Shown here: in pieces, positions 27,901-32,091 of the stretch
Position numbering within the stretch: the first letter of the stretch is position 1
How the letters are laid out: every line of letters begins with the position of its first letter
Assembly: GCA_963770895.1 (NCBI GenBank)
Contig: CAVYRF010000002.1
Coordinates: 3,872,001 to 3,936,000, forward strand
Direction: 5' to 3'
From: an uncultured Acidobacteriota bacterium
GTDB lineage: Bacteria; Acidobacteriota; Thermoanaerobaculia; Multivoradales; UBA5704
DNA length: 64,000 nt
Translations under genes and position numbers: made by a program
Notes under the pieces: model-generated
Seen by the model: the letters and a program-made list of their open reading frames with translations, nothing else
What the model was told of the DNA's origin: nothing
The model's database searches: none

Positions 27901-30900
27901 CTCGCGCCGGGTGAGCCGCCGGCCATCGGCCGCCCGCTCCCCGGTACCCGCGCCTACCTTCTCGACCACCGCCTGCGGCCGGTGCCGCCGGGCGTCGCCG
28001 GCGAGCTGTTCCTGGGCGGCGCCGGCCTCGCCCGCGGCTACCTCGGGCGCTCGGAGCTGACGGCGGAGCGCTTCCTCCCCGACCCGTTCGCGGCCGCGGC
28101 CGCGGCGGGCGGGCGCCTCTACCGCACCGGCGACCTGTGCGCCTGGCGCGCCACGGGCGACCTGGAGTTCCTGGGCCGCACCGACCGGCAGGTGAAGGTG
28201 CACGGTTTCCGCATCGAGCTCGGGGAGATCGAGGCGGAGCTGCTGGCGCAGCCGGCGGTCGCCGAGGCGGTGACGGTGGTGCGCGAGCACCCGGTGGGCG
28301 GCCGCCAGCTCGTCGCCTACGTGGCCGGCGACGCCGCCGCCTTGCCGGCGGCCGAGGCGCTGCGCGCCGCGCTGGGGCGCCGCCTGCCGGCGCACATGGT
28401 GCCGGGCGTCGTCGTGCGGCTGCCGGCGCTGCCGCGCACGCCGAACGGCAAGGTGGACCGCGGCGCCCTGCCGGCGCCCGACCTGGGCGCGGCGCGCGGC
28501 ACGACGCCGCCGCGCACCGCCACCGAGCGCCTCCTCGCGGAGCTGTGGAGCGAGCTGCTCGCCGTGCCCGTCGCCGGCGTCGAGGCCGGCTTTTTCGACC
28601 TCGGCGGCCACTCGCTGCTCGCCGCGCGCCTGGTGCACCGCCTGCGCGACCGGTGCGGCGTCGCTCTGCCGCTGCGCGCGCTCTTCGAGACGCCGGTGCT
28701 CGCGGACCTCGCGGCGTACCTCGACCGCCCGGGCGGCGAGGGCGGCGCCGCCGCCGGCGTGTTCCCGGGGGTGAGGCGGCCGGAGCGCGGAGCGGCGCCG
28801 CTCAGCTTTGCCCAGGAGCGTCTGTGGTTCCTCGACCGCTTCGACCAGGGGCGCTCGTCGCTCAACCTGCCGGTGGCGCTGGCGCTGCGCGGCCGCCTGG
28901 TGGTGCCGGCCCTGGCGGCGAGCCTGGCCGAGGTGGCGCGGCGCCACGAGATTCTGCGCACGCTGTTCCGCGCCGAGGACGGCGTCGGGCGGCAGTCGGT
29001 GGCGCCGCCCGGCCCGGCGGCGCTGCCGCAGGTCGATCTGCGCGCCCTGGCGCCGCCCCGGCGGGAGGGCGAGCGCGCGCGGCTCACCGCCGCCCATGCG
29101 CTGCGCCCCTTCGACCTGGCGGCGCAGCCGCCGTGGCGCACCCTGCTGCTGGCGCTCGACGCGGAGGAGCACGTCCTGGCCCTCGGCCTCCACCACATCG
29201 CCGCCGACGGCTGGTCGATCGGCATCCTGGTGCGCGAGGTCGCCGCCGCCTACCAGGCCGCCGTCCGCGGCACGCCGTCGCCGCTGCCCGAGCTGCCGGT
29301 GCAGTACGCCGACTTCGCCGCCTGGCAGCGCTCGCCGGCCGCGGCGGCGGATTTCGCGCGCCAGCTCGCCTACTGGCGCGAGCGCCTGGCGGGAGCGCCG
29401 CCGAGCATCGAGCTGCCCACCGATCGGCCGCGGCCGGCGGTGCAGAGCTACCGCGGCGCGCGCTGTACGGCGCTCGTCGAGCGCCCGCTCGCCGAACGTC
29501 TGGCGGCGCTCGCCCACGCCCACCGGGCGACGCCGTTCATGGCCCTGGTCGCCGCTTGGAAGGTGCTGCTGCAGCGCTTCAGCGGCCAGACCGACCTGGT
29601 GATCGGCACGCCGTACGCCGGCCGCGCCGGCGCCGCGCTGGAGGGCCTCGTCGGCCTGTTTCTCAACTCCCTCGCCCTGCGCACCGAGCTGGCCGGCAAC
29701 CCCTCCTTCGCCGAGCTGCTGGCGCGGGTGCGGGAGACGGCGCTCGGCGCCTACGCCAACGAGGAGGTGCCTTTCGAGCAGGTGCTGGCCGAGCTGCGGC
29801 CGGAGCGCGATCTCAGCCGCACCCCGGTGTTCCAGGTCTTCTTCAACATGCTGAGCTTCGCGGCGCCGGAGATCAGCCTCCCCGGCCTCGTCGTGCACAC
29901 GCTGGCGACGCCTGAGCCGCCGTCGAAGTTCGACCTCACGGTCTACGCCGCCGAGCGGCCGGAGGGGCTGCTGCTGACGTTGGTCTACAACGCCGATCTC
30001 TTCGACGGCGGGCGCATGGCGGAGGCGCTGCGCCAGTACCTGCTGCTGCTGGCGCAGGCGGCGGCCGATCCGGCGGCACCGATCGACGGGCTGTCGCTGC
30101 TCACCCCGGAGGCGACGGCGCTGCTGCCGGATCCGGCGGCGCCGCTCGCCGCCACCTGGTTCGGCGCCGTGCACGAGGTGTTCGCGCGCCACGCCGCGGC
30201 GGCGCCGGAGCGCATCGCGGTGCACGCGCCGCGCGGCGCGCTTTCCTATGGGGAGCTGGACCGGCGCAGCAACCGCCTGGCGCAGGAGCTGCGCGACGGC
30301 GGCGTCGGGCGGGGCGACGCGGTGGGCATCTATGGCCATCGCAGCACGCCGATCGTCGAGGCGATCCTGGCGGTGATGAAGGCCGGCGCGGCGTTCGTGG
30401 TGTTCGACCCCGCCTACCCGGCGAGGCGCCTGATCGAGCTGGTCGAAGTGGCGCAGCCGCGCGCCTGGCTGCACCTCGAGGCCGCCGGCGACCTCGCCGC
30501 GGAGCTCGCCGGCCACCTCGACAGCCGCTCCCTGCGCCGCCTGCGCCTGGGCGGTGCCGCGCCCGCCCCGTGGGAGAGGGGCGCCGGCGCGCCGCCGGCG
30601 GTGGAGGTGGGGCCCGACGACCTGGCCTACATCGCCTTCACCTCCGGTTCGACCGGAGTCCCCAAGGGGGTCGAGGGGCGTCACGGCTCGCTCTCCCACT
30701 TCGTGCCCTGGCAGCGCCGCCGCTTCGCGCTCGGCGAGGACGACCGCTTCTGCATGCTCTCGGGGATCGCCCACGACCCGTTGCAGCGCGACATCTTCAC
30801 GCCGCTCCAGCTGGGCGCCGCGATCGCCATCCCCGATCCGGCGGCGATGCTGGGGCAGGGGGAGCTCGCCGACTGGCTGCGGCGCGAGGCGGTCACCGTC

Positions 30901-32091: not shown

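Follow-up and report, generated by a model that had tools for sequence, protein, structure and literature searches.

A Lys2-like adenylation domain of a widespread bacterial clade at a peptide synthetase to polyketide synthase junction in an uncultured Acidobacteriota bacterium

The gene cluster and the last module of g2

A stretch of 64,000 nucleotides from an uncultured Acidobacteriota bacterium (GenBank assembly GCA_963770895.1, contig CAVYRF010000002.1, positions 3,872,001 to 3,936,000; hereafter the window, whose own numbering is used below) carries a cluster of nonribosomal peptide synthetase (NRPS) and polyketide synthase (PKS) genes. Four large genes, g1 to g4, were picked out by third-position G+C, and together they encode 14 adenylation (A) domains (Table 1). 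The subject of this analysis is the fifth and last A domain of g2, termed g2A5, which lies between the condensation (C) and thiolation (T, or carrier) domains of module 5 and resembles that of Lys2, the fungal aminoadipate reductase.

Table 1. Positions of the large genes, of the domains around g2A5 and of its counterparts in the source genome (KS, ketosynthase; AT, acyltransferase; Cy, heterocyclisation domain; MT, methyltransferase; aa, amino acids).
Feature	Position	Strand	Basis or content
g1	8075-14974	+	2 A domains
g2	15958-32091	+	5377-aa NRPS, five C-A-T modules
Condensation domain, g2 module 5	28789..30123	+	PF00668, residues 64-508 of the piece from 28600; HHIAADGWS
g2A5, Lys2-like adenylation domain	30160..31710	+	g2 residues 4735-5251; TIGR03443, motifs, pocket signature
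Thiolation (carrier) domain, GGHS	31774..31965	+	PF00550, residues 1059-1122 of the piece from 28600; GGHS at g2 residue 5297
Basic C-terminal tail of g2 and stop codon	31966..32091	+	Sequence read
g3	32088-51023	+	6311 aa; KS, AT, 502-aa stretch without assignment, carrier, Cy, A(MT), T, C, A(MT), T, C, A, T, further C-type domains
Start of g3: KS (~32103-33233) and presumably malonyl-type AT (~33675-34496)	32088..34496	+	Pfam KS N- and C-terminal domains and AT; motifs
502-residue stretch between AT and carrier	34497..36003	+	Post-AT linker first, then Ala-rich region
Carrier domain of the PKS module	36000..36191	+	PF00550, residues 1305-1368 of the piece from 32088; GGHS at g3 residue 1329
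g4	51050-63844	+	4 A domains
Further Lys2-like A domain	G000:C2 near 1764113	+	C-A-T module, then C domain
Further Lys2-like A domain	G000:C2 near 4494985	-	C-A-T module, then C domain
Further Lys2-like A domain	G000:C2 near 251119	-	C-A-T module, then C domain

Module 5 of g2 was classified as a C-A-T elongation module on the presence of the Pfam domains C, AMP-binding, AMP-binding_C and PP-binding, a match to the generic A-domain model TIGR01733 above its cut-off, and a GGxS carrier motif. The HHxxxDG motif of its C domain was located at g2 residue 4412. The g2 protein stops about 40 residues past the T domain, and its basic tail is presumed to be a docking region towards g3. The GTG start codon of g3 at 32088 overlaps the g2 stop, and g3 opens with KS and AT domains directly after the carrier, forming a hybrid NRPS-to-PKS interface; g2A5 thus does occupy the last NRPS module before a KS, as the original prediction had it. 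The g3 KS contains the Cys motif TACSTS and both His motifs, HGTGT and NVGH; in the AT, GHSVG and HAFH are present, which we take to be of the malonyl type. The catalytic motifs of the C, A, T, KS and AT domains are all intact.

The same C-A-T-KS-AT-T order was found at L001, a locus in a Thermoanaerobaculum metagenome-assembled genome (74% identity) that is probably the orthologous cluster, and the orthologous loci L001 and L002 both retain the architecture of the module. This conservation and the intact C, A and T core motifs argue against the idea that module 5 is inactive or skipped. That idea, which we hold to be highly improbable, draws on another g2 A domain being out of frame, such that the cluster may be decaying. 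The core of that domain, the third in g2 (24171-24766), is encoded in a different frame from its surroundings, with frame 1 used to ∼24171, frame 2 from ∼24224 to 24766 and frame 1 again from ∼24715; the reading frame of g2 remains open across the break because of the high G+C. The break represents either a pair of assembly indel errors or a real inactivation, and the counterpart domain in L001 is intact.

Lys2 likeness and the bacterial clade of g2A5

Translation of 15958-32091 confirmed that g2A5 contains KGVEGRHGSL, MLSGIAHDPLQRDIFTPL, VAHLTPAMGQ, AFLVGDVLTRRD and NLFGSTETQRAVGY, the five motifs on which the resemblance to Lys2 was originally proposed, and the core motifs SGSTGVPKG, YRTGD, GRADQQVKIRGFRIELGE and PNGKLDRK are intact. 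As a proxy for a letter-by-letter comparison with fungal Lys2, the domain was matched to TIGR03443, the equivalog model for Lys2 (L-aminoadipate-semialdehyde dehydrogenase; length 1390, curated cut-off 1030.1 bits). This was the best NCBIfam match of g2A5 (515.5 bits, E 2.7e-154), ahead of TIGR01733, which scored 403 bits against a cut-off of 317.4. At E ≤ 1e-75, TIGR03443 matched none of the 10 other window A domains scanned, a control set that left out one frameshifted domain and two with methyltransferase inserts. When g2A5 was used as a phmmer query, it scored 1131 bits against itself, and those other window A domains that are intact scored 218-270 bits. The likeness to Lys2 is therefore far beyond chance, and g2A5 is an A domain of Lys2 type that differs from its neighbors, as had been predicted. 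A search of the PDB, which holds no Lys2 A domain, returned LgrA, Txo2 and similar structures as best matches, and the ESM Atlas returned generic AMP-binding clusters only. SolG was considered as a relative and rejected; it scores higher with other window A domains and is presented in PMC10204066 as an ordinary module of predicted Ser type.

A protein search with the A domain produced 7913 proteins at E ≤ 1e-30. The TETQR motif together with DPRH-type signatures was present in approximately 78 of the best 120, and among the matches listed 49 of these proteins end 300-370 residues past the motif, just after the carrier; the reductase domain PF07993 was found in none of the best 120. In a scan of one genome per species, 319 stretches encoded a relative, and the best 80 of these were used for all phylum and context counts. 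Most were from Acidobacteriota (60), followed by Chloroflexota (7), Gemmatimonadota (6) and Myxococcota (2), with one each from Tectimicrobiota (Entotheonella), Binatota, Cloacimonadota, Cyanobacteriota and an unplaced deltaproteobacterium, giving 8 named phyla in all. TIGR03443 was matched at E ≤ 1e-100 by 79 of 79 aligned clade domains (g2A5 and 78 loci) versus 0 of the 71 ordinary A domains sampled at those loci. A tree was built from 96 A domains, comprising every second row of both alignments plus the first six clade rows, nine further window A domains and eight relatives from cyanobacteria. The 45 ordinary A domains all lay on one side of a branch with an SH-aLRT support of 100, and the 43 TETQR-type domains made up one side of a branch with a support of 84.

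A C domain precedes the clade A domain in 78 of the 80 loci. The first catalytic domain past the carrier is a KS in 36 loci (37 with L079), a C domain in 27 and an A domain in 3, while 5 loci reach the contig end and 8 had no assignment; a thioesterase (TE) was found in all six of these 8 that were scanned (L059 and L074 were left out). No reductase domain was seen after the clade A domains in the related loci. The clade A domain is accordingly an ordinary building-block selector, often but not always positioned before a PKS. The source genome has four Lys2-like A domains in four assembly lines, g2A5 being one of them (Table 1); TIGR03443 flags of 'over cut-off' in the genome scan come from the summing of neighboring modules in one frame.

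The original prediction had described g2A5 as a fungal domain inside a bacterial NRPS, and this part was not upheld. The one point in favor of a recent transfer of a fungal LYS2 domain is the resemblance to the Lys2 model, and the 319 bacterial relatives, their spread across phyla and the four copies in the source genome all speak against it. So does composition: the G+C of 28001-32000 is 0.765, compared with 0.775 and 0.783 in the adjacent stretches, and the third-position G+C at g2A5 (0.96–0.98) is like that of the rest of g2. Furthermore, variation in the C domain tracks that in the A domain, and a reductase domain is lacking. We consider such a transfer to have next to no chance of being correct. 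Instead, g2A5 is a member of a large, native and uncharacterised bacterial clade. It is a widespread bacterial variant of the A-domain type represented by Lys2, ACV synthetase and Zmn16 (both discussed below), here placed in an elongation module. The earlier interpretation is thus partly supported, and the domain is less exotic than it was first framed.

Relatives were detected in 7 of the 251 cyanobacterial genomes sampled. This cyanobacterial sub-group (L089, L090, L094, L095, L097, L099 and L100) has TETPQA in place of TETQRA, with the pocket signature DPRHFGFQAK in six of the seven and DIRHFGFQAK in L097. The proteins are either three-module NRPSs or single-A open reading frames of ∼910–974 aa; L089 (974 aa) has the order A-T-TE, and L094 (915 aa) and L095 (910 aa) are of similar size.

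Binding pocket, substrate and relation to Lys2

The ten specificity positions of g2A5, located by their offsets from conserved motifs, give the pocket signature DPRHFVLRAK. The same mapping applied to two other A domains of the window produced DFWNIGMVHK (g4A3) and DLTKVGHVGK (g2A2), which are printed as Thr and Asp/Asn signatures, respectively (PMC3547906 Table 2; PMC12283262 section 12), and the mapping is validated by these published codes. Within the clade, all 79 domains have D235, P236, R239 and K517, 78 have R330 and 75 have H278; position 322 is variable (L 33, F 20, Y 20, S 5, T 1). The basic pocket residues R239, H278 and R330 are therefore near-invariant over at least 8 phyla, at overall identities of only 49–75%.

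Because the pocket is basic and near-invariant and TIGR03443 is the best curated model, an acidic dicarboxylic substrate is expected, and by analogy we regard an acidic alpha-amino dicarboxylic acid as the probable building block. Between 2-aminoadipate and glutamate the odds appear about equal. A non-acidic substrate, with the conserved Arg and His residues as structural features of the clade, would suit a clade that is so widespread and has four members in one genome, since such a distribution fits some other abundant metabolite; it would also agree with the lack of an aminoadipate supply route described below. Signature predictions can mislead, as for the zeamine synthetase domain Zmn16 A1, for which 2-aminoadipate was predicted and Asp was found (PMC3547906, PMC5811116). 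The conservation of three basic pocket residues across such divergent sequences argues against this alternative, however, and glutamate would need no special supply. We consider a non-acidic building block unlikely.

Which carboxyl group is activated is a separate question, and activation of the distal one is a proposal, made by analogy, that we place a little below even odds. The closest curated model to g2A5 describes an enzyme that acts on the distal carboxyl, and g2A5 has the residues D235, P236, R239 and H278 of the 'DPRH' signature, which characterizes A domains of the Zmn16 A1 type. The best documented parallel is Zmn16 A1 of Serratia plymuthica, which has the code DPRHLALLAK and an NRPSpredictor call of 2-aminoadipic acid (PMC3547906 Table 2), and which thus has the first four signature residues, D-P-R-H, in common with g2A5. 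It likewise belongs to a hybrid NRPS-PKS line, and the corresponding residue, the first (N-terminal) one of prezeamine, was identified by NMR as 'gamma-aspartate', that is, side-chain-linked (PMC5811116). PARAS also records tethering of Asp via the side-chain carboxyl for two A domains. Through the Zmn16 A1 precedent, distal-carboxyl loading becomes plausible for g2A5, and also not unprecedented. Unlike module 5 of g2, the Zmn16 A1 module is a loading module rather than an elongation module directly before a KS.

Taken as a whole, the best explanation in our view, although one that we hold tentatively and rate as slightly less than an even bet, is that module 5 of g2 is a working C-A-T elongation module in which a Lys2-like A domain of the native clade tethers an acidic amino acid by its distal carboxyl. 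In this scheme the A domain would pick the substrate and load it as a thioester onto the T domain, and the upstream C domain would couple the nascent peptide to the substrate's alpha-amino group. The chain would then cross the g2/g3 junction to the g3 KS, which would extend the thioester carbonyl by one malonyl unit, before the Cy domain and a Cys-type module carry on after the PKS module. Distal tethering has parallels in Lys2 and in prezeamine, whose Asp is linked by its side chain, and here it would yield an iso-linked backbone with its alpha-carboxylate left free. If this is true, an entire clade of NRPS modules would be adding iso-linked acidic residues to the natural products of uncultured soil bacteria, and structure predictions that assume a normal alpha-linkage for such clusters would be systematically wrong.

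Several observations weigh against distal tethering of an acidic residue. In ordinary A domains the residue equivalent to D235 binds the alpha-amine beside the activated carboxyl, and its retention in g2A5 is equally compatible with alpha-carboxyl activation. The deep pocket of Zmn16 A1 (L, A, L, L, A) differs from that of g2A5 (F, V, L, R, A). The signature of yeast Lys2, which we take to differ from that of g2A5 at one of the first nine positions, appeared in no text found by our literature searches. Both the substrate and the regiochemistry proposed for g2A5 rest on analogy. A further module that may be compared is the iso-linked D-Glu module of microcystin synthetase (McyE), a hybrid PKS/NRPS module that adds glutamate through its gamma-carboxyl and has a signature that starts like that of g2A5; literature searches found no text with this signature, and no McyE-like architecture was seen among the 7 cyanobacterial genomes with relatives.

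The supply of substrate is a further difficulty. A check for the alpha-aminoadipate lysine pathway, suggested along with the original prediction, gave a negative answer in the source genome (94.95% complete): LysW had no matches, LysX scored 50.6 bits against a cut-off of 275.6, homocitrate synthase 176.8 against 413.55, and lysine 6-transaminase 118.3 against 520.8. A lysA-like gene scored 294.9 bits, just below its cut-off of 297.9. No dedicated aminoadipate supply was found even though four assembly lines use this domain type, with the saccharopine dehydrogenase and piperideine-6-carboxylate dehydrogenase routes not searched. Aminoadipate would therefore need another source, whereas glutamate would not.

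In an alternative reading, g2A5 activates the ordinary alpha-carboxyl of an acidic amino acid (Glu, Aad (2-aminoadipate) or a modified Asp/Glu). The alpha-amine would then be bound by D235 and the carboxylate of the side chain by the Arg/His pocket, the KS would make a normal gamma-amino-beta-keto unit, and the likeness to Lys2 would reflect shared ancestry and substrate rather than regiochemistry. Consistent with this are the invariance of D235 and K517 (79 of 79), the standard C domain and standard core motifs of module 5, and the finding that clade modules are followed by a C domain (27 of 80) or a TE (6 of 6 scanned) as often as by a KS (36 of 80, or 37 with L079), as would be the case for an ordinary building block. 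On the other hand, the closest curated model represents a distal-carboxyl-activating enzyme, and the one product-validated domain with a DPRH code corresponds to a side-chain-linked residue. We see alpha-carboxyl activation as a real possibility, though one that we doubt; were it correct, g2A5 would reduce to an ordinary, uncharacterised specificity class.

The original prediction also held that g2A5 bears on the evolutionary origin of Lys2, and on this point the comparison with TIGR03443 was informative. The match of g2 module 5 takes in both the A and the T domain and stops at profile position 919 of 1390, which is where the reductase begins, and the C-terminal half of the module-5 C domain matches profile positions 2-229, the N-terminal region, at 75.5 bits. 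Three control C domains scored 28.8, 29.4 and 51.8 bits over this region. A sister module elsewhere in the source genome matches positions 2-917 in one piece. The differences are equally clear. Scores remain below the 1030.1-bit cut-off (515.5 bits for g2A5 and 674.7 bits for the C-A-T module), and module 5 is without the C-terminal thioester reductase of Lys2, the g3 KS coming next instead. Its C domain is full-length with an intact motif (HHIAADGWS), compared with the truncated ADA domain of Lys2; g2A5 sits in an elongation module of a multimodular NRPS that feeds a KS, and the genome shows no aminoadipate lysine pathway.

In PMC7884236 the N-terminus of Lys2 is described as a C-like domain in truncated form, termed 'ADA', which is reported to be required for activity, and an elongation module is suggested as the ancestor of Lys2. 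The matches to the Lys2 model found here, in the A and T domains and in the C-terminal half of the C domain before them, fit this suggestion. According to the same source, module 1 of ACV synthetase also has a truncated C-like N-terminal domain and, together with Lys2, may derive from an elongation module; by that account, no other NRPS domain was known in 2021 to use aminoadipate (PMC7884236). The ACV synthetase module resembles the proposed function of g2A5 in activating L-2-aminoadipate at the delta-carboxyl and differs in being an initiation rather than an elongation module, a comparison made by description only. Bacterial A domains that are sister to the fungal aminoadipate reductases and have no reductase domain were reported by Bushley and Turgeon (2010; PMC2823734); those are described as single A domains followed by an acyltransferase, unlike the C-A-T modules of large assembly lines seen here.

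Judged from sequence, the C-A-T modules of the clade are candidates for the ancestral form of Lys2, and the origin of the fungal enzyme becomes a testable question. A bolder version, which we rather doubt but state for its reach, sees in these modules the present-day bacterial form of the elongation module that gave rise to Lys2 (ADA-A-T-reductase). They would incorporate delta-linked 2-aminoadipate, or else gamma-linked glutamate, and such iso-peptide units would be common, though so far unrecognised, among the building blocks of peptides and peptide-polyketides from acidobacteria. In the present cluster, the KS would then extend the distal carbonyl to leave a pendant alpha-amino-acid carboxylate.

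Other features of the cluster

The 502-residue stretch between the AT and the carrier of g3 had no Pfam matches at E ≤ 0.01. Its PDB matches are confined to the first ∼85 residues, which are the KS-AT (post-AT) linker, and the remainder is Ala-rich with a degenerate Rossmann-like part; the stretch may include a degenerate or dead ketoreductase. AT-to-carrier spacing differs widely among related loci. The carrier of the PKS module has a GGHS motif like that of peptidyl carrier proteins instead of the usual acyl carrier protein type.

Downstream of the PKS module (∼36500-45000, g3), a heterocyclisation-type domain of the DxxxxDxxS kind was identified with the motif DYLIADAWS. The two A domains that follow have the signatures DLYNLSLIWK and DLYDCSLVWK, the former presumably a Cys signature, and each carries a methyltransferase before its C-terminal subdomain. 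Together, the Cy domain and the methyltransferase-bearing A domains suggest methylated thiazoline units. The beta-keto group is probably kept and passed to the thiazoline-forming module, unless a free-standing dehydrogenase at the end of the cluster acts in trans.

The G+C content is 75–78% across 8001-64000, compared with 67–72% in the first 8 kb of the window. The cluster spans from window position 8075 to ∼18.7 kb past the window end, and its part beyond the window includes a gene of 5690 aa ending C-A-T-TE. On the 3' side of this gene are a 338-aa short-chain dehydrogenase and then a carbamoyltransferase (L085:832-20000, where L085 position 1 is window position 63001). A weak aminotransferase-like match (33.5 bits) was noted within the 5690-aa gene at G000:C2:3939843-3940115. 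Our literature search found no paper on the product of this cluster. Upstream of the cluster are genes for a MacB/FtsX-type permease, a PAP2 protein and a Big_7 protein. The permease gene (window 5433-7853, reverse strand) adjoins the cluster, and its product is likely to be an exporter.

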